This document shows, in pieces, positions 2,997 to 50,720 of a DNA stretch of 64,000 nt; position 1 is the first letter of the stretch; each line of letters begins with the position of its first letter. Source of the stretch: Naegleria gruberi. Taxonomy: Eukaryota. The notes under the pieces are model-generated. The model was not told where the DNA came from. It made no database searches and saw nothing but the letters and a program-made list of their open reading frames with translations. Both the position numbers and the translations under genes were made by a program. The stretch lies in NCBI GenBank assembly GCA_000004985.1, contig GG738855.1. One strand, 5' to 3'.

Positions 2997-5813
2997 TTGG
3001 TTTGCCACACAATGACCGAACATGATCATCATGAAGAAGAGAACAAACATGCTACTAGTTTACCGACAGGTTCCATAGAATTGGATGAAGTCATAACAAC
3101 AATTTCAACGACAAATAATCAATTGCAACAAACTTCTAATAACCATTCCGAAAATTCATCATCAAATCATTCTTCAACAACCTCTACAACAACTCGGAAT
3201 CACCCTAACCTTCCGGAAATAATAATTCCAAAGAATGAAGATATTATCGTAGCCATTTCCAAACATCATACCTCTCCAAATTCTCACCATATTCCCAATA
3301 ATAATACATCTACAGATATTGTCTTTGAGGATAATGGTGAATCCAATACTAGTTTTATGAATACAGAAGATGATATAATTTCAGATTCAACACAAGAGGA
3401 AAACCTCTATGATGATATTGTTCTATCAAATCCGACCCAACCAAACTCTGCGCGATCCAATAGTAACAATAGTACGGCAACAACAACAAGTAGTAACCAA
3501 CCCTCTCCTCTTCAACAATTAAACATTCAGCCCCATCATCAAATACAGGATGGTAGAGTTTCTCCCTCTGCAAATCCCTATCCGACAAGTTCTAATTCAT
3601 CAATTAAACAACAACATTCGGTAATCACGACTCCATCTCCTCCTTCGATTCCTTTTTCATCAGCTGCTACAAGACACCATGTAAATAATAATACACCAAC
3701 ATCATCACTACACAAACATACCACCACTACACCAACCGTAAATATATCAAGACATTATAGTGGCACCAGTAACAAATCTGATATTATCAGTATTGAATCA
3801 TCTTACTCTGAAACTTCGAGTTACAAAGCTAAAAGACATAGAGAAAGGAATATACAATACCAAACCAATACTGTATCTGAAAGGTCAAACAATTCTCATA
3901 GACAATCCAAATTACCTCCCTCTCTCATTTCTGATTTTACACCAAATAGAAACTCTCTAGTAAGGTTTCAAGAAGATAATATCATTGATAATAATTTACA
4001 TCATCAAATTTCCAAGAGACTCACATCCTCTCCAAGGGCTGAAGATGATCAAAGAATGATTGCAAGCAATTTCTTCACCAATGCCTCAGTGCCTAATCTT
4101 TTATCAATTGGAAGTAATATTTTCTTTTCTGGAAACAAGACCTCTACTGTCACAAGTAATAATGTAGACAAGTATAAGGATACTACAAATGTTCTAAGCT
4201 TACCAGATAATATTATGCTGCACATTTTCTCATTTGTTGGAATTCAATATGCAGAGGATAACAATTACAACATGCTCTGTAAGAGGTGGTATGTCTTGTT
4301 GTGCTTGGATTATTTGTGGAAGGAGAGATACTTTAATTTTTTCAATTCGAGATCAATTCAAGCAAATCCAATGCTTCTTTCATATTCTAAAGATTTTGAT
4401 TTTCCTCAAAGAAGCAAATTTAGATATAATTTAATCTTATTGAGAAAGAAGAAGCACCTCCTCAAGCAACGTCTTCTATCTCAAAACAGACACGAAAAAT
4501 CAAGAAGATACTTCCTATTCAACTCATTTGTATTGAATCCATTAGTTGCAATAATATGTTTCATGATTTCCACTGTAGTGTTTGGCCTACAAGAGGATGG
4601 TGTAATTCCAAAGAATGATAGAAATACTTTACTCTTTGTTTTTTTGCCTTTCTTCACATCATTCCTGTTTTCCATTGTTGGAAATGTTTCACTTGGTTTG
4701 AGAGAGACCATTTTCTGCAAGAATGGATTTTATGACATTTCTCACTTTATCCATTTTCTTGTTATTGTACTCGGACAGTACACATTCTATTTTTGCTCTT
4801 TACTGTTTGGTTTAAAGTGGTTTTGGTTTAAAACCTCTTTATGGACTTCCTTCTCCATTCCATGCCTTTGTATCTATATCATGTTTGTTGGATTTTGCTT
4901 TGCATATATTTTGCATAAGTATGTCAAAAGAAGAATTCAATTCCAAGATATGAGAAAGGATAGACCCAACCTGAGTGTAAATAGTCCTGAATACTTTTAT
5001 TTTGCTTATAGACTGAGATCTCATAAGAGAAGAGAATTCTACTCAAAAGCCAAATATATTGCACAACCATACGATGATGATTTTATAGAGTTGAGTGAAG
5101 ATGAAGATATGGGAAATGATACAGATGAGGATCTTGAGGATACTTTTGATGACTCTACTGCATTTGATGATGAAACTGAAACAACATCAAGAAAAACTGA
5201 TGAAATGGTTTCAACACCAAAGACCAGGGAAAGAAAGAAAGAGACAGCCAAGCTTTCTGTCTTTAAAGAGTTTGATAATCAAATGCATATTCAAGATATT
5301 ACTGACATATCCACACTTACCATTATTGTATTTATATTTCTCATACTATTTATGGTAGGATTGGAGATGATTCTGGTACCCCTCAAAATTGATGGGATTA
5401 TTGTATCTTCTTGGAGTTCTGTGTTTGTACCTCTATGGATAGTAATGTTCATTCTTTTATGTGGATTGCCGTCGTGGATAACATGGGAAATTTGCACCAA
5501 AACCAATTTAGACAAGAAAACAATAAGCACTTCAGTGGATGTCATTACTGAAGAATTTTCAAAGGCAACCACCAAAAATAAGAATGACCCAGAAAGATAC
5601 CAACGAGCATATTATTCGTTTGTTGCATGTCCATGGTGTTTTACCATTCCATTGTTTGTTGCTTTGGTTGTTCTTGCAGCCACTCTTGATGGAGCCAACA
5701 TTCCATATGTTGTTTCCTGTGCATTATTTGCATTTTGTGAGTTTGTAATTGGTGGCCTTTACTTGATGATTGTTATACCTTATACTCTAGCACACAACGT
5801 TTGGGATGTTTGA
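2997..5813 (+). CDS. F-box-like motif followed by a multi-pass transmembrane region; hypothetical membrane protein with an N-terminal S/T/N-rich low-complexity region
   Basis: Single 938-aa ORF. It has an LPDNIMLHIFSFVG F-box-like motif and at least 8 hydrophobic segments in the C-terminal half. Confidence 0.5.
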   Translation: MVCHTMTEHDHHEEENKHATSLPTGSIELDEVITTISTTNNQLQQTSNNHSENSSSNHSSTTSTTTRNHPNLPEIIIPKNEDIIVAISKHHTSPNSHHIPNNNTSTDIVFEDNGESNTSFMNTEDDIISDSTQEENLYDDIVLSNPTQPNSARSNSNNSTATTTSSNQPSPLQQLNIQPHHQIQDGRVSPSANPYPTSSNSSIKQQHSVITTPSPPSIPFSSAATRHHVNNNTPTSSLHKHTTTTPTVNISRHYSGTSNKSDIISIESSYSETSSYKAKRHRERNIQYQTNTVSERSNNSHRQSKLPPSLISDFTPNRNSLVRFQEDNIIDNNLHHQISKRLTSSPRAEDDQRMIASNFFTNASVPNLLSIGSNIFFSGNKTSTVTSNNVDKYKDTTNVLSLPDNIMLHIFSFVGIQYAEDNNYNMLCKRWYVLLCLDYLWKERYFNFFNSRSIQANPMLLSYSKDFDFPQRSKFRYNLILLRKKKHLLKQRLLSQNRHEKSRRYFLFNSFVLNPLVAIICFMISTVVFGLQEDGVIPKNDRNTLLFVFLPFFTSFLFSIVGNVSLGLRETIFCKNGFYDISHFIHFLVIVLGQYTFYFCSLLFGLKWFWFKTSLWTSFSIPCLCIYIMFVGFCFAYILHKYVKRRIQFQDMRKDRPNLSVNSPEYFYFAYRLRSHKRREFYSKAKYIAQPYDDDFIELSEDEDMGNDTDEDLEDTFDDSTAFDDETETTSRKTDEMVSTPKTRERKKETAKLSVFKEFDNQMHIQDITDISTLTIIVFIFLILFMVGLEMILVPLKIDGIIVSSWSSVFVPLWIVMFILLCGLPSWITWEICTKTNLDKKTISTSVDVITEEFSKATTKNKNDPERYQRAYYSFVACPWCFTIPLFVALVVLAATLDGANIPYVVSCALFAFCEFVIGGLYLMIVIPYTLAHNVWDV

Positions 5814-6041
5814 GATTCTTTATTTGCCAAATCCAAATGAAATTCAAAATATCCTCCGTCAAAATAAATTTAAAAATGACAAGTGAATCTCAATTTAAGT
5901 AAGAGAGAATAAAGGGATTGAAATCATTGAATTTGTAATGCTCGCCCTTAGTTTAGAGTCATACAGACAGTGCGCGTATGTTATAATGTTTCACCTCTTA
6001 AACATGCAATATTCAAATTTAAACAAATCAAATAGAGAAAG

Positions 6042-40291: not shown

Positions 40292-43012
40292 CTAGTTTAG
40301 GAAAATTTTTACCTTGGATTCAATCTTTCCTCGACATGTTGGACAATTGACTTGATTGGAAATACAATCCAAACAAAATAAGTGTCCACACGGAACACTC
40401 ACATGATCTACCTTATTATCCATACAAATAATACATTCAAATAGTTCTTGTTGATGTAAATGTTCATGATTATTGACTTTGGGTTCTTGTGATTCTAAAT
40501 CTTCATAATATTTAGCAAGTTTTCCAATCAAATCTTGATTTTCCTTTTCCTTCTCCTCCAAGTCACATAAAAATTGATGAGTTTGAGTTTCCAATTGAGT
40601 ACATTCCCTATTAAGTTTTAAAACTTGTTGTTCGAGATTAGTGTTGGAGAGTCGAAGATTTTGAATGATATTCGATTGTTCTACAGTCTTTTTCTTGAGA
40701 TTTTCCTTTTCCAAATCTAATTGCTTGTTAGATTGGGTCATTTCATTAAGTTTAGTTTCTAATTGTTGAACTTTCTTTTCCACTTGTTGACTTTTCTTTG
40801 AATCAATTTCCTTAACTTTCCTTTCGAATTGTCTATTTTCATTTTCCAATCGTGATTTTTCTTGGTGTAAAATTTCCATTCTCTTTTCATACTTTAAATT
40901 GGATGTGATCAACTCTTTGGATATATTTTCTAAATTGAACTTGGATCGATTGAGTTCAAGTGTCAAATCCTTTACTGAAATCTCCAAATTCTGAACTTGA
41001 AATTCTCTGTCTGAAAGAGTTTTCTTCAAATTATCCATTTCAGAGACTTGGTCGATGAGCTGGTGCATTGTATTTGTTTTTCTTTTCAATGCAAATTGTA
41101 ACAATTCCACTTGTTCTCTTAATTCCACTTCTCTTAATGATTCACTTGATGATTCTTTAATTTCTTTCATTGATTGTTCAGGAATTTTCTGTTGTGGAAT
41201 ATCTTTAACAGGTTCTGGATGTTTTTTGCTATAATTTTCCTCACATTTACCAGAGCAACATGAAAACTTTCCACATTTGGTCTTTTGTGTTGTGTATTTT
41301 TGACATTCCACACATTGCCAATCATACAATTCCAAATTATCCTTCAAATTTCTAAAGTGATATCTCAAATCAAAGCAATAAATCTTGTTGCTTAATTTTT
41401 TCAATCTATCCATTCCTCCATAAACATACAATCTCATTTTTGAAACATGATTACAATATCCAGTTAATGCTTCCATATTCTTTGAAGTAGTCAGAACCTT
41501 TTCCCAATTGAATGTATTCAAGTCGAGTGACCAAATTTCATTACTTGCCACTCCATTCATTCCTGTACCCCCATAAAACACTAAAGCCCTGTCCTTTCCA
41601 TTGATTTTCACTTTAGACCAACCACAGTGAGTCATTGGAGGTGGTTTAGTCTTGGAAATGTTAGAAATTTCAATCCATTCGAGAGAAGAACAATCAAATA
41701 GCCACATATCGTTCAAAGAATCCAATCTTGATCCATCTCCACCATATAAAATCAAATATTTTCCATTGCAAATACTAGTCATGCAAGATTTTGATTTGTC
41801 TGAAGGACAAGGTTTGGAAATGTTCAATTTTTGAAGCTTTTCATTCTTGATATCATATCTGAAAAAGGTTCCAACATTTTTACATAATTCACCTGAATAC
41901 TGTCTACCTCCATAAATGTAAATAAATCCAGGAACACTTGCTGCACATGAAAGAACCAAATTAAACTTGAATTTTAACTTTTTCCATTCGAATGTCTTTA
42001 AACAGAGTCGAAAGGATCCATCATTAACTCCATCATCTCCTCCACCAATTAAATAAGCATACTTTTCCTCAAAATCAGAAATGAAAACATGTCCATTTCT
42101 TCTTCCAGCTTCAGGAATTTCTCCACTAACCACTGGAGTAATAAGTATATTCGAGTAAGTATCCAACATGATTAATTCACCAAAAGTTTCACTCATTTGT
42201 CGAGAAATCAAATCCTTTTCTGTATGAGAAATACCTCCCCAATAGAAAATTGAAGAATCATTGTAAATAAATCCAGAATGTAAAACTCTTTCTGTCATTA
42301 CATAATCTGTTACAATAATTTTCCATTTTGGAGGTTCAGTCAACTCTTCTACTTTTTGTTTGTGAGATTCTTTCAGTTGTGAAATAATTTTCTGATCATC
42401 CACAAAAAACAATTCATTAGGATTGTCAATTCTCAATCCTGGCCATTCATCCGAATAGATTTTGTAATATGGATTCTTAATAATGACATATCTACCAACT
42501 CTAAACTCTTCAGATATATTAACTTTTCCATAATTGTAAATAGCTAATTGAACAATATTAGTATTTAAATCAGTCAACCCATTTTCTACAATAGTCATCA
42601 CTGATGTCATTCTAAACACTGGTTGACAAATTCTAGCAAATAAATATTTCCCTCTATTTGGATGATTTGGTGAATTATTTGGTGAGAGTTTCAATTGTTC
42701 AATCTGAATCAATTCCATTCCCTTTACAATTTCCAAATCTTTCACAACCTGACCTTTCCACACTTGTCCTCTATCCTTCCATGCACAAACATCCCCTTCC
42801 GATGGTCGATATTTAATCAATGCTGTTGAATGATGTTTGAGAATGGCTGCTCGTGTAAATCTTTCCTTGGAAACTTGATTTGTAGTTGGAGGTTGAAAGG
42901 CAGTGGCTTGTTCTGTGTAGTTGTGTAGACCGTGATCACCCATTTCGTTTCGCATTTCTGTCATGAGAGCATGATAAACCTCGGGTGAGAGATTGGAGAG
43001 CAAGTCATCCAT
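40292..43012 (-). CDS. Kelch-repeat, B-box-like, coiled-coil and C-terminal RING finger protein (TRIM/LZTR-like putative E3 ligase)
   Basis: It has six Kelch-like blades (xIYVYGG/ILYGG/LVFYGG...W), a CVECQK...CGKFSCCSGKCEENY zinc module, a long heptad region, and a C3HC4 RING (CIICMDNKVDHVSVPCGHLFCLDCISNQVNCPTCRG). The first ATG (MDDLLSNL) is at 43012. The track start at 43135 is a TTG. Confidence 0.7.
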   Translation of the reverse strand: MDDLLSNLSPEVYHALMTEMRNEMGDHGLHNYTEQATAFQPPTTNQVSKERFTRAAILKHHSTALIKYRPSEGDVCAWKDRGQVWKGQVVKDLEIVKGMELIQIEQLKLSPNNSPNHPNRGKYLFARICQPVFRMTSVMTIVENGLTDLNTNIVQLAIYNYGKVNISEEFRVGRYVIIKNPYYKIYSDEWPGLRIDNPNELFFVDDQKIISQLKESHKQKVEELTEPPKWKIIVTDYVMTERVLHSGFIYNDSSIFYWGGISHTEKDLISRQMSETFGELIMLDTYSNILITPVVSGEIPEAGRRNGHVFISDFEEKYAYLIGGGDDGVNDGSFRLCLKTFEWKKLKFKFNLVLSCAASVPGFIYIYGGRQYSGELCKNVGTFFRYDIKNEKLQKLNISKPCPSDKSKSCMTSICNGKYLILYGGDGSRLDSLNDMWLFDCSSLEWIEISNISKTKPPPMTHCGWSKVKINGKDRALVFYGGTGMNGVASNEIWSLDLNTFNWEKVLTTSKNMEALTGYCNHVSKMRLYVYGGMDRLKKLSNKIYCFDLRYHFRNLKDNLELYDWQCVECQKYTTQKTKCGKFSCCSGKCEENYSKKHPEPVKDIPQQKIPEQSMKEIKESSSESLREVELREQVELLQFALKRKTNTMHQLIDQVSEMDNLKKTLSDREFQVQNLEISVKDLTLELNRSKFNLENISKELITSNLKYEKRMEILHQEKSRLENENRQFERKVKEIDSKKSQQVEKKVQQLETKLNEMTQSNKQLDLEKENLKKKTVEQSNIIQNLRLSNTNLEQQVLKLNRECTQLETQTHQFLCDLEEKEKENQDLIGKLAKYYEDLESQEPKVNNHEHLHQQELFECIICMDNKVDHVSVPCGHLFCLDCISNQVNCPTCRGKIESKVKIFLN

Positions 43013-43537
43013 TTTGTTTTGATATTTTTTTCGAAAAAGAAATGAAAGTAAAGAAATTGGTTTTTTGAAGAATTGGGAATTGTTAAAAATGCCTGAATGG
43101 AATAGTTTATCAAGAATTCCTTGCCATAAACACAATATATGAAAAAAGAATGTTTGAAAGAAGGTAGTACATTGAATACATTGATTTAATGAATTAGTGA
43201 AATAGCAACTACTAGTAAGAGAAAGGATTCTACCATTGAATCAACTCCACCAACCAAACAATTCAATCTTGGAAGAATTCCTTCCCATATTGGATAATGT
43301 TAAACTCAACAAGTGTCCTCCAAGACCTTCATCCAATATTTCTCATGAATATGGTTTGAAATTGGCAAGGGCTTATCTTGAATATGTCCAAGAATTGTAT
43401 GATCATTTCCCAGATAAATTCAAGAATAATGAAAAGAGAATGGAAACTTGGCAGAAATTCAAAAATGCATGTTGAACACATATAATTTTATTTGATGAAA
43501 AACAACATTTTAGGTCGTAACTTTTTTAAGTGAAGTA

Positions 43538-44188
43538 TTGGAGAAGGATGATTTGTCAATCAAGTGCAATAGATGTCGTATTGAAATGGAACATTTACAT
43601 GAGGTTAATGCATTCACTCTTCATCATGTCATGTATAAGGATCACGACTTTACAAAGACATTTAGGAGTACAACAAAATTCATTCCCGAGTTCAAAAAGT
43701 TTGGTGCTGATTGGTTCAAGAAGAATGAAAAGTTGGAAGTATTGTGTAGACCTTGTCATGGTTTGGAACATGCAAGGAATGTTGAAGGTGGTTCTAATTG
43801 GCAATATTGTCATGAAAAGATGATCAACCTGATGGGAGGAAAATGTCAGGAATGTGGTCTGTCTTTTGAATCCAATTCAGAATTGGGAAAGATCTTTCAT
43901 GTGCATCACAAGAATAGGGATGGTGTGAAGAAGAGAGCCCAAGCAACAGAAGATATTGATGATGAAGAGAGGGAAATAGCCAATAATGTTAATGAGTACA
44001 AGTTAATTCTTGCAATGACTGAAGAACAACAATTAGAAAAGTTGAAGGAATTTGAATTGCTCTGTGATGGATGCCATTATTTTGAGCACATGGAAAAGCA
44101 TGCAAGATCGGAAGTTATTGATTTAGGAATGAAGGAGAGAATGATGAACTTGTTGAGTTTTCAGAGAGTATTGTCTATGGAAAAATAA
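43538..44188 (+). CDS. Protein with two HNH-nuclease-like motifs and a zinc ribbon. The start is uncertain, and the first ATG is at 43586.
   Basis: Motif 1 is LHHVMYKDHD...NEKLEVLCRPCHGLEH. Motif 2 is HVHHKNRDG...LLCDGCHYFEH. Both fit the HH-N-LCxxCH-H pattern of HNH (His-Me finger) endonucleases. An N-terminal CNRC is present. Confidence 0.5.
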   Translation: MEKDDLSIKCNRCRIEMEHLHEVNAFTLHHVMYKDHDFTKTFRSTTKFIPEFKKFGADWFKKNEKLEVLCRPCHGLEHARNVEGGSNWQYCHEKMINLMGGKCQECGLSFESNSELGKIFHVHHKNRDGVKKRAQATEDIDDEEREIANNVNEYKLILAMTEEQQLEKLKEFELLCDGCHYFEHMEKHARSEVIDLGMKERMMNLLSFQRVLSMEK

Positions 44189-44584
44189 GCAGCCAGGGTT
44201 TTGCACAACAAAGCACATTGTACAATTGCACACTGATTGGTTTTGCTAAATTAATTGCAGATATTTTTTGAAAATAATAAAATAAATTGGTTAATTAAAA
44301 AATATAATAAGCTTTTCTGTAAAATTTTTCAACCATTAATAGACTTTATAACCAAGCAAACGATTACTTTACAACAGTCAAATGAAAACATGAAAATGTG
44401 AAAATGAAAATTTTTGTTTGTTGAAAATGAATATTATCCATTTTGCAATCGAATTAGTAATTGCGGATCCGTAATTAGACCTCACTTGCCAGGTTTGCCT
44501 GTTGTGTCTTTAAGCAATGGAGTACACTACAATTTCCTTTTTGCTTTAAATTTTAATCTCAAAACGTGGCATCTTAAATATTTC

Positions 44585-44612
44585 GAATTTACAAGAATTT
44601 ACAAGAATTACA
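44585..44612 (+). repeat. Short tandem repeat, (GAATTTACAA) about 2.7 copies
   Basis: gaatttacaa gaatttacaa gaattaca, in an intergenic spacer near the tRNA-Thr gene. Confidence 0.5.
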
Positions 44613-44850
44613 CGTTTGGTACTGAATGACAACTTGAAAATTTTTAAAAAATCGGAATTAATTTCCGAAAAGAAAAATTCAAGCCAAAAACCTATCGACA
44701 CTTTAGAACAGCTCGTTCTCGATAACTACTTGGAGATGGAAGGTAATATTTCAGATATAGGTAGCACAGCATGTGAATGTGAAGATATAGAAAGTTGAAA
44801 GATCGAAAAAGTAAAAGGATGGTGAAAATAGCAAAAGATTAAAATTCAAA

Positions 44851-44922
44851 TGGCTATTGAGGGGATTGAACCCTCGACCTTCTCCTTACGAGAGAGAAGC
44901 TCTACCACTGAGCTAAACAGCC
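44851..44922 (-). tRNA. tRNA-Thr(CGU): tRNA-Thr (anticodon CGU)
   Basis: The reverse complement folds as a cloverleaf. The acceptor pairs GGCTGTT with AATAGCC. The D-arm is GCTC-AGTGGTA-GAGC. The anticodon loop is CTCGTAA. The T-arm is GAGGG-TTCAATC-CCCTC. A T-run lies 8 nt downstream. Confidence 0.85.
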
Positions 44923-45393: not shown

Positions 45394-46597
45394 ATGCTAC
45401 TCCATCCACGTACATTTATTCTCATCCTTGCCATTCTCTTTTGTGGATGTAATACATTGATTATCAACGGAGCCGAGCTCGGCTTCAAGTTGAAACACAA
45501 TATTAAATTATTAAAAACCAATGATCGTCCAATTATAGGAATTATTGCACAACCAACAGGACGTACATTGAGTAGATATGGTAACACCTATATTGCTGCA
45601 TCCTATGTTAAATATGTTGAATCTGGTGGTGCTCGTGTTGTTCCAATTCCATATAATTTACCTGAAAGTCAATTACGTACATTATTTGAATCTTTGAATG
45701 GTGTTGTTTTTCCAGGAGGTAAATATTAATAATTTGAAATTTCATGATGTGAATAATTGAATATTTATATTGATGATGATGATCAATGAAATTTATGAAT
45801 GAAATTTATATTGAATATTTAAATTGGAATTTAATATATGAAAATATATGAAATTCATAAATGAAAATACATGATTTGTATAATGAAAATATATAGGTGG
45901 TACCGATTTAACCAATAATGATGGTTCTTGGACTCCATATTTAAAAACTTTAGGATTATTTGTCAAGTGGTCAATGGAATCCTATGATAAAAATCAAGAT
46001 TCCTTCCCAATTTGGGGAACTTGTTTGGGAATGCAATCCTTGACAATTATCTTGTCTGGTGATTCTAACATTCTTGCTGGTGGATTTGATAGTTATAACA
46101 TTTCAATGCCATTGAATTTTACAAATTCAATTCCAGACACTAAAAAGATGAGTAGAATTTTCAATAATTGTCCAATTTCATACATGAATACTTTGGCAAC
46201 TCAACCTGTCACTCTTAATAATCATCATTATGGTGTTCCTATTCCATCTTGGATGACCAATCAAAAGCTCACTTCTGAAAATTTACTTTTAGCAATTAAT
46301 AAGGATAGAAATGGAAAGGGATTTATTTCACTTTATGAAAACAAGAGATATCCAATCTATGCCAGTCAATTCCATCCAGAAAAAATTGCCTTTGAATGGT
46401 GTCATGAAGATATCGATCATTCATTTGATAGTTTACAAGCTAACATGTACTTTTCTCAATTCTTTGTCAATGAAGCTAGAAAGAGTCAACACAAATTCCA
46501 AAATGAACAAAGTGAACTTGCCTCATTGATTTACAATTACAATCCAGTTTACACTTATCCAGTTGAACCAGATTTTGCTCAATGTTATTTCTTTTAA
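45394..46597 (+). CDS. GGH: gamma-glutamyl hydrolase (peptidase C26) with signal peptide, join(45394..45718,45897..46597)
   Basis: It has a signal peptide (MLLHPRTFILILAILFCG), then IIGIIAQP...VVFPGG|GGTDL...FPIWGTCLGMQSL...HHYGV...SQFHPEK. A 178-nt AT-rich intron has a GTAAAT donor. Confidence 0.85.
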
Positions 46598-47453: not shown

Positions 47454-50400
47454 TTATTTCTTCTTGTTGAGTCTGGATAATTCCTTCTTGTAATTTTCAA
47501 CCTTGAGCTTTTCTTCATTGTAATTCTTTGTAATTTTGGCTTTGGAATCTTCAGCGAGGGCTAATTGCTTCTTTAACTTTTCAACTTCTGCCATTACTTG
47601 AGCTGCATTTCCACTCTTCAAAATGTTGAGCTGATCCATCAATTTGGAAATGTTTTCTCTCAAATCATTTACCTCAATATCTTTCTTGACAATTATTGTT
47701 TTCAATTCCTCAACTTCTTGAGATGATGTTTCCTTAACAATAATTGGTTCCACAACTGCCTTCTTAGATTCTTCCAGTTCAATATTCATCTTTTCCAAAA
47801 TTGAAACCTTAAGTGAGAGGTCTTGTACAACCTTCATTTGTTCATTGATTTCTTCCTTATCCTTTACAGATGAATTTTCGGCTGAGCTAACTTTGTCTGT
47901 CAAGTTCTTAATTGTTGCTTCCAAAGCATCAATCTTCTTCTTACTTTCAGTTCTTTCAGCATTTTGTTTTTCCTTAGCTTCCTTGAGAGCCTTTTCTTTG
48001 GCACTTTTCTCCTTGTCCAATTGTTGGTTGAGTGAGGATTGAGACTTTTCCAGAGATTCAATTCTTTTAGTAAATGAAGATACATCCTTTGAGTCTTTTG
48101 ATTTCGAGCAAACTAGATCGAAATCTGCTCTCAACTTTTCAAATTCTGATTGTCTCTTTGATAATTCGCTCATTAATTTTTCCACTCTATTATTCACTTC
48201 TGTCAATTCTGATGATTGTTTTTCTGCTTGTTGAGATTTTTGTTTGAGTTGATTTTCAATTTCTTCTCTTTCTGCCTGCATTTCCTTAATACGGGCTTCA
48301 AAAGATTCCTTGATTGAAGAAGTGTCTTGTTCGGACAATTGTTTTTCTAGAAGTTCAACCTTCGTTTGAGATTGTTCCCTTTCTGTTGCAGAAACTTCTT
48401 GCAACTCTTTAAGGGTTTGTTGAGCCTTTGTTAATTGCAATTGAATATCATCTCTTTCCTTTAAATTTTGTACAGTATCGGAAGCCTTTGATTGAATCAA
48501 TTCGAGTATCTTGGCGTCCTTTTCTTTTACAATCTTGGTTAATTCTTGATTGGAGTGTTTGAATTGCTCCATCATCTTTCTAACCTCATCAACTTCAGAC
48601 ATGGCAGTGTTCATAACAGTCTTCATTTGAGCCTGTTGTTCAGCCACCTTCTTGTGTTTTTCAATCTCTTCTTGGAAAGATTTGATTTGTTGTTTCAACT
48701 CAATATTCTCGGAAGCAACAACTTTGCTCTCGGAATCTTTGTTATCATCTTGTTTAAGAATTTCAATTTCTTCTTGGAGTGTTGTAATAGTGTTCTTGAG
48801 CTCTTGATTTTCAGTTGAAGCCTTCTCCGTTAATTCCTTTAATATGTTGCTTGTTTCTTGGAGAGAATGTTCTAATTTGGTGATCATCTCTGTAGATTTC
48901 TCCTTCTCCCTTGAAAGAGTGGTTAAGGTTTCATTCAACTTTTGCATTTCTCTATAATGTTCTTCTCCCTTTTCCTTGGCAGCAATCAATTCCTTTGTTA
49001 ATGTTGCAACAGTTTCACTTCCCAGAGCAACCTCTTTCTTTAATTTTTCAACTTCACTCATAGTGGAATTAAGAGCATCTTCCTTCTTTTTACGTTGATC
49101 ATTAATTGAAGAAATGGTTTCATCTCTTTTTTGTAAATCTGATTTGAGTGCTTCTACCGTTTGATTCAACTTTTGGATCTGTGATTCCTTTTCTTTGGTG
49201 GTTTTTTGAGTGGTTGTAAGTTTGTCAGTGCATTCTTTTAATTGCTTCTTTCCAGCATCAACATCTACTCTCATTTGATTAATTTCAAAGTTTCTTGTCT
49301 TGAGCTCTGACTTGAGCATTTTGATATTTTCAATATCGTTCTTGTGTTGCTCTCTTTCCTTTTGTAATGTTTCAATGACTTGCTCGTTGTTCTTCAACAC
49401 TTCATTACTTTCATAAATTATCCTTTCTTGTTCTTCCAATGTATTGGTTAATGACAACAATTGGTTCTTTAAACCTTCGGATTCTAAAACCAAACTTTCG
49501 ATAGCTTCTTCCTTTGCATGAATCAAATCCTTATTATCAGAAATTACCTTATCCTTACTCTCAGATTCCGTCTTTGTTTGTTGTAAAGCCTGAATGTTTT
49601 TAGCAATTATTTCCTCTTTTTCTGCAATCTCCTTTTCCAGTTCCTTGTTTCTTGTTTGGTTTGTTTCATCTTGGGAAGAAAGCTTGGTAACTTCAACAAG
49701 CAAGCATTCACTCTTTCTCTTTTCCTCATCCCTTTCATGCTTGATATGTTCAACCTCTTTGGAAATTTCCTTGAATTTGCGAGAGGTTTCTTCAATCTCC
49801 TTGTTCAAGTCGAGATTACAATTTCTGAGCAATTCATCTTTCTGTAACAACTCCTTCTTAGTGTCATCAAGTTGTTTCTTTAATTGTTCAACAACTTCAG
49901 TAGAAGGAGATGGAGAAGTAGCTGGAACAAATGATTGAATCTTTGCCAATAATTCTTCTTTTTCCTTCAAAAGTTTAGCAATTTCCTTGGCATCTCTTTG
50001 TTTGGCTTGAGTGAGTTTTTCAACTTCCTTAGTCTTCTCAAGAACGGATCTTTCCTTTGCGATAACGGTATCCTTCAATGTGGTAATTTCCTTAGTTTTA
50101 GAGGAGACTTGTTTTTCAAGGGAAGCAAATTTAGTCTCTGTTTCGGATTTGATATTTCTCAGCTTTTCAAGCTCCACCTTCATGTTTGATACTTCATTAA
50201 CAAACTGTTCTCTTTCTTCTTTGAGTTGTTTCTTGTCTTCCTTAATTATCTTTGATTCCTTCTTTTGGCTTGTAAGGGCATTGTTCAAATCAAGCTTTTC
50301 CTTCATCAAGGTAGCAATTCTGGAATCTTTCTCTGTTATTTCCTTTTGCAATGTTGCAATTTCTTCCTTTTGTTGATCTTTGATTTTCTCCATGTTGGAC

Positions 50401-50720
50401 AATTTAGATTGAATACTCTTGTTTTCCTTTTCCACAGCCTTTATGCGTTCTGCTTGTTCTTCAAGTTTTCTCTTTGAGGCTTCCTTTTCGGATTTCAGAC
50501 TGAAAACTACTCCCAAAAGAATAGCAATACAAGTAGTCAATATAATTGATTGGTATGAAAGACTACTACTAATAGTATCAAGCAGGAAATTACTACTTGG
50601 TGCACAATAGACCGAAGAAGAAAACAACATTGCTAGGGTCAATGATTTAAGACCCAAGTAGGAAGAATGGTTTACCAAGTTCATATTTTCTATATTGTTG
50701 TTGGTGTTTAAATTAAACAA
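47454..50720 (-). CDS. giant coiled-coil protein with N-terminal membrane anchors (kinectin/golgin-like)
   Basis: 1088-aa single ORF with two N-terminal hydrophobic segments followed by about 1000 aa of uninterrupted heptad repeats rich in E/K/L/Q. Confidence 0.6.
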   Translation of the reverse strand: MFNLNTNNNIENMNLVNHSSYLGLKSLTLAMLFSSSVYCAPSSNFLLDTISSSLSYQSIILTTCIAILLGVVFSLKSEKEASKRKLEEQAERIKAVEKENKSIQSKLSNMEKIKDQQKEEIATLQKEITEKDSRIATLMKEKLDLNNALTSQKKESKIIKEDKKQLKEEREQFVNEVSNMKVELEKLRNIKSETETKFASLEKQVSSKTKEITTLKDTVIAKERSVLEKTKEVEKLTQAKQRDAKEIAKLLKEKEELLAKIQSFVPATSPSPSTEVVEQLKKQLDDTKKELLQKDELLRNCNLDLNKEIEETSRKFKEISKEVEHIKHERDEEKRKSECLLVEVTKLSSQDETNQTRNKELEKEIAEKEEIIAKNIQALQQTKTESESKDKVISDNKDLIHAKEEAIESLVLESEGLKNQLLSLTNTLEEQERIIYESNEVLKNNEQVIETLQKEREQHKNDIENIKMLKSELKTRNFEINQMRVDVDAGKKQLKECTDKLTTTQKTTKEKESQIQKLNQTVEALKSDLQKRDETISSINDQRKKKEDALNSTMSEVEKLKKEVALGSETVATLTKELIAAKEKGEEHYREMQKLNETLTTLSREKEKSTEMITKLEHSLQETSNILKELTEKASTENQELKNTITTLQEEIEILKQDDNKDSESKVVASENIELKQQIKSFQEEIEKHKKVAEQQAQMKTVMNTAMSEVDEVRKMMEQFKHSNQELTKIVKEKDAKILELIQSKASDTVQNLKERDDIQLQLTKAQQTLKELQEVSATEREQSQTKVELLEKQLSEQDTSSIKESFEARIKEMQAEREEIENQLKQKSQQAEKQSSELTEVNNRVEKLMSELSKRQSEFEKLRADFDLVCSKSKDSKDVSSFTKRIESLEKSQSSLNQQLDKEKSAKEKALKEAKEKQNAERTESKKKIDALEATIKNLTDKVSSAENSSVKDKEEINEQMKVVQDLSLKVSILEKMNIELEESKKAVVEPIIVKETSSQEVEELKTIIVKKDIEVNDLRENISKLMDQLNILKSGNAAQVMAEVEKLKKQLALAEDSKAKITKNYNEEKLKVENYKKELSRLNKKK

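Follow-up and report, generated by a model that had tools for sequence, protein, structure and literature searches.

Free-standing genes for HNH nucleases are common in phages and giant viruses and are hardly known as eukaryotic nuclear genes. Here we describe such a gene, encoding a protein with two HNH units in tandem, at positions 43514-44188 (+) of a 64,000-nucleotide stretch of Naegleria gruberi nuclear DNA (contig GG738855.1; the whole stretch is hereafter called the window), together with the small family to which it belongs. HNH nucleases, free-standing homing endonucleases and niches in the flanks of tRNA genes are all known; what we did not find described is their combination, a nuclear two-unit HNH family that is confined to Naegleria-like amoebae and linked to tRNA genes. 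In the literature we found no description of a tandem-HNH family or of tRNA-linked elements in Naegleria. The N. gruberi locus holds a real, old resident gene for a single-chain, two-unit zinc-finger HNH (beta-beta-alpha-metal) protein.

Several described systems resemble parts of this arrangement. The retrotransposons TRE5/TRE3 and DGLT-A of Dictyostelium and Ty3 of yeast reside beside many different tRNA genes, whatever their identity, and they mark the flanks of genes transcribed by RNA polymerase III (Pol III) as a favoured niche in compact genomes. These elements move by means of reverse transcriptase and integrase and recognise the Pol III machinery, whereas the N. gruberi locus carries no such enzyme, only the HNH protein and an upstream coding module. 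In the single-chain LAGLIDADG endonuclease I-SceI two catalytic modules are fused and both strands are cut at an asymmetric site; its fold is unrelated to that of the tandem HNH protein, and the analogy would be a mechanistic one only. Naegleria is also home to the His-Cys box homing endonucleases I-NgrI and I-NjaI, members of the His-Me finger superfamily that are encoded by group I introns of the ribosomal DNA (rDNA) on the rDNA plasmid. Unlike the tandem HNH family these enzymes have a different motif set, and no sequence relation between the two was detected.

The phage HNH homing endonucleases (PHROG 2255, 3106 and 8048) share more with the family. Like it, they have a CxxC...HH...CxxCH...H unit with a helical insert and a helix before the first CxxC ('..VV.LLGGKC.ECG'), and they are free-standing and patchily distributed. 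Unlike the family, they reside in prokaryotic virus genomes, have no tRNA gene near the sampled relatives, reach ~30-36% identity over one unit and usually possess one unit only; the relative P0008 has two, which were duplicated independently. In the HNH endonucleases of giant viruses (Clandestinovirus, Medusavirus, Barrevirus, Pithovirus-like and Marseillevirus-like), whose hosts are amoebae, the predicted-structure matches span both units of the N. gruberi protein, but the sequence identity is 13-17% and the likeness is one between structure models. The closest precedents in function come from phage T4, whose MobE is a free-standing HNH homing endonuclease (PMC2790892). SegB, a GIY-YIG homing endonuclease of the same phage, lies within a tRNA gene cluster, cuts the tRNA region of a genome that lacks it and is co-inherited with the flanking tRNA genes (PMC2330249). 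As a selfish nuclease gene among tRNA genes SegB is similar to what may be proposed for the family, but its fold is GIY-YIG rather than HNH, it belongs to a phage, and the target was established by experiment.

The tandem HNH open reading frame (ORF) of N. gruberi was open from 43514 and ended with a TAA stop at 44186-44188. Counted from a TTG, the stretch 43538-44188 (+) comprised 216 codons, the first ATG in frame being the annotated start at 43586, and it was 100% identical to the NCBI entry 'predicted protein [Naegleria gruberi]' of 200 amino acids. Unit 1 (43565-43771, +; residues 10-78) had the pattern CxxC...HH...CxxC-H-x3-H, with CNRC at residues 10-13, HH at 29-30, CRPC-H at 70-74 and a last histidine at 78. 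Unit 2 (43844-44089, +; residues 103-184) had the pattern CxxC...HVHH...CxxC-H-x3-H and a longer helical insert, with CQEC at residues 103-106, HVHH at 121-124, CDGC-H at 176-180 and H184. The spacing was 12 to 16 residues from the first CxxC to HH and 26 to 58 residues from there to CxxC-H-x3-H, and the two halves of the protein aligned with each other (BLASTP E 4e-6). A first-pass annotation of this DNA had reported two tandem HNH (His-Me finger) signatures and an N-terminal CxxC, and both units were indeed complete; the ORF, the ORF upstream of it, a 10-mer repeat and a tRNA gene were all present where it had placed them.

We consider it highly probable, from conserved residues and structure models, that both units adopt the HNH nuclease fold. 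Eight residues (C,C,H,H,C,C,H,H) were invariant in 15 of 15 units taken from the family and its phage-type relatives. The HH pair, present in every one of these units, ends the predicted strands 26-30 and 120-124 of the AlphaFold2 (AF2) model, and the equally invariant CxxC-H-x3-H carries the metal-ligand histidines in a helix. The histidine set HH...H-x3-H is that of colicin E9. Both units also had the two invariant CxxC pairs of a Cys4 zinc site, a trait of the zinc-finger HNH subgroup. Between strands and helix the family alignment had no column with a conserved Asn, and the residues that the first-pass annotation had chosen as the N of HNH were not conserved across the family; this Asn varies within the superfamily.

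Profile comparisons pointed in the same direction. Models of the Pfam HNH type (PF01844) stayed below the gathering threshold (14.1 bits for the query vs 21.4; 11.9-17.8 bits for other members). HMMER, run exhaustively over 1.84 billion representative sequences at E below 1e-3, reached the phage-type HNH proteins P0008 (1.7e-5), P0009 (9.4e-5) and P0012 (8e-4). P0008 in turn matched PHROG families of HNH endonucleases at 1e-34 to 1e-37; a related phage ORF on contig L007 did so at ~1e-15 to 1e-17. The query itself matched two HNH families of PHROG at 1e-3, family member P0003 matched phrog_8048 at 1.7e-8, and the PADLOC model of the HNH protein ZorE matched the query at 5.5e-5. When a profile of 11 Naegleria-family units was compared by hhalign with a profile of six phage-type units, the probability was 97.6% (E 3e-12), and unit 2 was the query unit closest to the phage-type units. 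UniRef labels the N. fowleri member 'HNH domain-containing protein'. The sole yield of a PDB sequence-profile search, an identity as FYVE, was rejected as a chance match.

The AF2 model calculated from a 13-sequence alignment had a predicted local distance difference test score (pLDDT) of 70.8 and showed beta-beta-alpha topology in both units; the model from the single sequence was not usable (pLDDT 37.6). In each unit a strand ending in HH was followed by a helical insert, a second strand and the helix carrying H-x3-H, which in unit 1 corresponded to strand 26-30, a later strand 66-70 and helix 71-80. Foldseek against viral models (BFVD) returned giant-virus HNH endonucleases with E 1.5e-5 to 7e-4 over ~200 of the 216 residues. 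Against the PDB there was no significant match (best E 0.59), though HNH nucleases dominated the list. The fold proposed in the first-pass annotation, for which profile searches and structure prediction had been suggested as a check, was thus supported by motif invariance, profiles and predicted structure, and catalysis by the tandem HNH protein is likely.

Twelve representatives matched in the exhaustive search, three of them the phage-type proteins named above, in line with the earlier remark that such a gene is rare: the family is small and lineage-restricted. Full-length two-unit members besides the query were P0002 (Logan assembly) and P0003 and P0004 (ENA metagenome ERZ27315067), all 35-40% identical to the query. 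The Naegleria relatives were XP_044568516 of N. fowleri (P0005) and XP_044541786 of N. lovaniensis (P0007), and P0006, P0010 and P0011 were fragments. Family members came from three species of Naegleria and from a small number of metagenomic contigs of eukaryote-like character; metagenome ERZ27315067 carried four divergent paralogues, and among all matches there was one N. gruberi protein. A word-indexed homology search recovered only the query protein itself, tblastn of phage genomes gave no match, and a pattern search of IMG/VR gave no close relative, only a 17-residue match to a phage HNH. Unit 2 of the members was 38-41% identical to unit 2 of the query, and unit 1 was 15-21% identical to it. 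Because unit 2 resembles other unit 2s far more than it resembles unit 1, the tandem duplication is, judged by these identities, older than the divergence of the family.

A unit was lost or broken at four of the eight family loci. All that remained of unit 1 in N. fowleri was its C-terminal part ('LEILCTACHHLLH'), in frame and ahead of the annotated Met. The N. lovaniensis copy had its unit 2 interrupted by a frameshift or stop, and with an H changed to R the sequence 'VIHIRHVDKG' stood in place of the HH motif. The homology of P0006 ended after HH of unit 2, and in P0011 the final His and the whole of unit 2 were missing. A Cys-rich N-terminal module was common to P0011/P0019 (L012 640-1766 / L013 951-2068) and the N. 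lovaniensis protein (L002 10001-10972; Smith-Waterman score 62 vs 32 ± 5 shuffled). These proteins, all without unit 2, may represent a single-HNH subfamily rather than independent pseudogenes.

No flanking ORFs or synteny were shared between the window and the homologous loci, or among those loci. In N. fowleri and N. lovaniensis DIRS-like retroelement fragments (L001 3771-6749, -; L002 6097-6719) were found 4-5 kb upstream of the HNH relics, with matches to reverse transcriptase at 2.7e-18 and to a Dam-like methyltransferase domain at 1.5e-4; they were the one exception, the two loci having no other genes in common.

The first-pass annotation had noted that the gene lies close to a tRNA gene, and this turned out to be a family-wide trait. 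All homologous loci were scanned for tRNA genes with ARAGORN and each call was confirmed by Rfam (54-70 bits). In the window a tRNA-Thr gene with anticodon CGU (44851-44922, -; RF00005, 69.5 bits) was convergent with the HNH gene and separated from the stop of its ORF by 662 bp. Convergent genes were also found 22 bp after the stop in N. fowleri (L001, tRNA-Leu(UAA)) and 274 bp after the stop of P0003 (L005, tRNA-Arg(CCU)). In N. lovaniensis (L002) a divergent tRNA-Leu(CAG) gene was located 423 bp before the start. The remaining three were in tandem with the HNH gene: tRNA-Val(CAC) 660 bp before the start of P0006 (L010), a tRNA gene that ARAGORN calls Cys(ACA) 762 bp before the N-terminal ORF of P0019 (L013), and tRNA-Leu(CAG) 1303 bp before the annotated start of P0002 (L003), where conserved upstream ORFs lie nearer to the tRNA gene than the annotated start does.

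A tRNA gene was therefore present within 1.3 kb at seven of the eight family loci, with differing tRNA identities; the only locus without one, L004, has just 1.1 kb of sequence on one side of the gene. Seven of the eight tRNA genes in the 127 kb examined fell at most 1.5 kb from a family gene, a zone making up 16% of the sequence (binomial P 2.2e-5; with tighter cut-offs 7e-5 at 1 kb and 2e-4 at 700 bp), values that have to be read with the caveat that there are eight loci, several possibly of one organism, and that the distance cut-off was picked after seeing the data. Three phage contigs bearing HNH relatives contained no tRNA genes. We are confident, if not certain, that the association of the family with tRNA genes is real.

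Sequence immediately 3' of the tRNA genes also showed conservation and duplication. A non-coding segment of ~135 nt directly 3' of the tRNA-Thr gene (44703-44837, -) matched the segment 3' of tRNA-Leu(CAG) at L003 (2626-2760), with blastn identities of 78.6% over 70 nt (E 1e-7) and 82.8% over 29 nt. The orientation of this trailer is the same relative to the tRNA gene and opposite relative to the HNH gene at the two loci, and it is single copy in the window. Three identities were tried for it and rejected: a coding exon (stops in every frame, no conserved reading frame), a known RNA family (no Rfam match) and a terminal inverted repeat (no inverted copy across the gene). At L010 direct repeats of ~150 nt (903-1058 and 2109-2248), ~79% identical by gapped blastn and 90% in an 82-nt core, bracketed the P0006 gene; copy 1 began 24 nt past tRNA-Val(CAC) and copy 2 overlapped the 3' end of the truncated ORF. 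At L002 (9404-9511) the last 11-12 nt of tRNA-Leu plus the trailer up to the T-run were present in three tandem copies of 36 nt, and at L005 (~2110-2160) the last 11-12 nt of tRNA-Arg plus trailer in two tandem copies of ~27 nt. No such 3'-end duplication was found at the one tRNA gene away from family genes (L002 20575-20648). At L004 a tandem duplication of 240 nt (5459-5938, 93% identical) was located just upstream of the P0004 gene.

Upstream of the HNH ORF a second ORF, here termed ORF A, extended over 89 codons without an ATG (43206-43472, +), between a TAG stop at 43203-43205 and a TGA stop at 43473-43475. It was homologous to an ORF, likewise without an ATG, that directly precedes the P0002 gene at L003 (Smith-Waterman score 65 vs 27.3 ± 4.9 shuffled; 0 of 2000 shuffles reached it), and at both loci the upstream ORF is in a frame other than that of the HNH ORF. 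Similarity to an ORF upstream of P0006 at L010 was weak (44 vs 25.4 ± 4.7 shuffled; 9 of 2000 reached the score). The codon-usage score of ORF A, 0.32, was like that of host genes, and no Pfam or PDB match was obtained. A relation to the N-terminal extensions of P0004 and P0007 was rejected, as the comparison gave no similarity; the Cys-rich module that P0007 has in common with L013 is a different one. Judged by its conservation, ORF A is an N-terminal or upstream coding module of the HNH gene. The first-pass annotation had listed this ATG-less ORF when it described a locus lacking clean gene models; its conservation at L003, and weakly at L010, marks it as a coding segment of the same gene and not as junk.

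The 5' end of the gene model nevertheless has no simple solution, and the earlier description of a locus without a clean gene model was borne out in this respect. The first Cys pair is conserved (IKCNRC in the query, IQCNRC in P0002) and its CxxC (43565-43576) precedes the annotated ATG. A start at 43586 leaves this conserved zinc-ligand pair out, and the public 200-amino-acid model, from which ORF A is missing as well, probably has an incorrect 5' end. Although the frame extends without a stop back to 43514, there is no ATG ahead of the conserved Cys pair. Enumeration of GT..AG joins for the 5' end gave many possibilities and none that was compelling. A spliced, a frameshifted or a separately translated combination of ORF A and the HNH ORF are candidate arrangements, and the sequence fits many joins. 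For the annotation this means that the conserved zinc-ligand pair is lost by the annotated start and that the conserved upstream segment is unannotated.

The best reading of these data is, in our view, an old, possibly fossil, homing-endonuclease-like gene linked to tRNA genes, which we put forward tentatively and at slightly less than an even chance; selfish or homing-type biology as such is possible and somewhat doubtful. The family shows some traits of homing genes, namely a patchy distribution, no synteny and degeneration of units, and these comparative patterns suggest mobility of the gene, past or present. Under such a reading the family would be, or descend from, a free-standing homing-endonuclease-like selfish gene with the tRNA gene flank as its niche. 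The two HNH units would act as a pseudo-dimer, one on each strand, so that both strands would be broken at a tRNA gene, close to one or in its 3' flank. Repair of the break from a gene-bearing copy would then allow spread to further tRNA loci, and the upstream module, ORF A, might supply the targeting. With its catalytic motifs intact but its 5' end unclear, the N. gruberi copy may still be active, may have been domesticated or may be a fossil in good preservation. The most specific version of this idea we regard as improbable: an undescribed heterolobosean nuclear selfish DNA in which a tandem-HNH homing endonuclease with an upstream targeting module would recognise tRNA genes of any identity, or the 3' flanks of such genes, and spread by break repair, duplicating tRNA 3' ends.

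Several results weigh against a homing-type gene, some of them from the N. gruberi locus itself. No target-site duplication and no terminal direct or inverted repeats flanked 43000-44850, and the duplications for which the first-pass annotation had suggested a search around 43200-44800 were not found. Candidate target-site duplications and terminal inverted repeats around 43014-44850 were rejected, the similarity of the flanks being matched by 98 of 300 shuffles (direct) and 187 of 300 (inverted); the repeats around the locus were short, rich in AT and explained by chance. A copy of part of the tRNA on the far side of the gene was likewise rejected, none being nearby, and no second copy of any part of the locus was present in the 64-kb window. 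The codon-usage score was 0.33 vs 0.35 ± 0.12 for host genes. GC content was 0.363 vs 0.353 ± 0.026 for the host, with GC at third codon positions ~1.9 standard deviations high. Recent horizontal transfer was rejected on the host-like codon usage and GC, and any acquisition would therefore be old. Within the family, the geometry of gene and tRNA varies (three convergent, three tandem, one divergent, 22 to 1303 bp), and the tRNAs differ between loci so that no single target sequence is evident. The small sample behind the association, noted above, counts here as well, and so do the four copies (the query included) with both units fully intact despite 35-40% identity, which fits purifying selection on a host function equally well. 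The selfish or acquired nature that the first-pass annotation had proposed gained partial support across the family, from tRNA adjacency, lack of synteny and decay, but not at the N. gruberi locus, where there are no boundaries and the composition is host-like. The inserted element that it had pictured there is not demonstrated, as flanking repeats, a second copy in 64 kb and deviating composition were all missing.

The main rival, which we regard as rather unlikely, is a domesticated or ordinary host nuclease that might repair DNA, resolve branched molecules or restrict foreign DNA, giant-virus DNA included. It would account well for the retention of the catalytic and zinc residues of both units in the four intact members, for the host-like codon usage, for the absence of element boundaries at the N. 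gruberi locus and for the position of the gene among densely packed genes, with a Kelch-RING gene on one side and a gamma-glutamyl hydrolase gene on the other. The conserved upstream module and the weak match to the defence nuclease ZorE would also agree with it. For such a nuclease the proximity to tRNA genes would have to be a by-product, for instance of both being placed in permissive, longer intergenic regions, which is hard to see when seven of eight loci adjoin different tRNA genes. Nor would a host function lead one to expect that no synteny is seen between loci, that half of the copies are minus a unit, including those of the sister species N. fowleri and N. lovaniensis, or that the family is so extremely small and patchy. 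The readings as a selfish gene, a domesticated gene and a viral fossil are not fully exclusive of one another.

That the gene is a fossil of viral gene transfer, from a giant virus or a phage-like source, and now a decaying remnant without present activity or mobility, appears improbable to us. Its appeal lies in the giant-virus HNH endonucleases, which are the best structural matches over both units, and in the phage-type HNH proteins, which are the nearest sequence relatives outside the family; the decay of the relatives and the lack of an ATG, both before the conserved Cys pair and in ORF A, could be taken as signs of a remnant. The frame of 216 codons is open, however, with 16 of 16 motif residues intact, and L003 repeats the layout with an ATG-less upstream ORF, which argues for gene structure rather than decay. 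No viral hallmark genes were found near the N. gruberi gene, whose neighbours in the window are the Kelch-RING and gamma-glutamyl hydrolase genes, IMG/VR contigs and phage genomes held no close relative, and the composition is fully host-like. According to a published study, endogenization of giant viruses has not been observed in Naegleria (PMC11043551), which also counts against a viral fossil.

Two further explanations are very improbable. The gene might be carried by, or lie next to, a transposon or retrotransposon of the classical kind that does the targeting of tRNA genes, a view to which the DIRS-like fragments 4-5 kb upstream of the relics in N. fowleri and N. lovaniensis and the direct repeats bracketing the L010 gene would lend themselves; but no reverse transcriptase, transposase or integrase was found near the gene in the window, L003, L004, L005, L010 or L013, the sole ORFs between the flanking host genes of N. 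gruberi are ORF A and the HNH ORF, and that locus is without terminal inverted repeats or long terminal repeats. A non-catalytic protein, its HNH-like units being treble-clef fingers that bind DNA or protein, would agree with the sub-threshold Pfam HNH score, the similarly weak scores of other zinc-finger models and the unconserved canonical Asn, but the HH and H-x3-H histidines, needless in a structural finger, are kept in every unit and the structural neighbours are nucleases.

If the family does home to tRNA flanks, selfish DNA of compact genomes would have a new route into the "safe haven" next to Pol III genes, one that works at the DNA level with a nuclease only, in parallel to the retrotransposons that target tRNA genes in Dictyostelium and yeast. 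The protein would then also be a naturally occurring single-chain enzyme that cuts both strands at an unusual target. Should it serve the host instead, it would be a lineage-specific nuclease in the genus of the pathogen N. fowleri, with a possible role against giant viruses.

The HNH gene is housed in a 2.4-kb interval between ordinary host genes. On one side lies a Kelch-repeat and RING finger gene (40292-43013, -; ATG at 43013) and on the other a gamma-glutamyl hydrolase gene (Peptidase_C26/GATase; 45394-46597, +; ATG at 45394, intron ~45727-45896), followed by a coiled-coil ORF of 1088 residues (47454-50720, -), also an ordinary host gene. The tandem 10-mer GAATTTACAA, present in 2.5 copies at 44585-44609, is trivial and no role was inferred for it. 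Among the phage-type relatives, the single-unit HNH gene on the phage-like metagenomic contig L007 (5776-8155) was found directly upstream of genes for an RtcB RNA ligase and a GIY-YIG/NUMOD endonuclease, a trio that looks like a cluster of free-standing homing-type nucleases.

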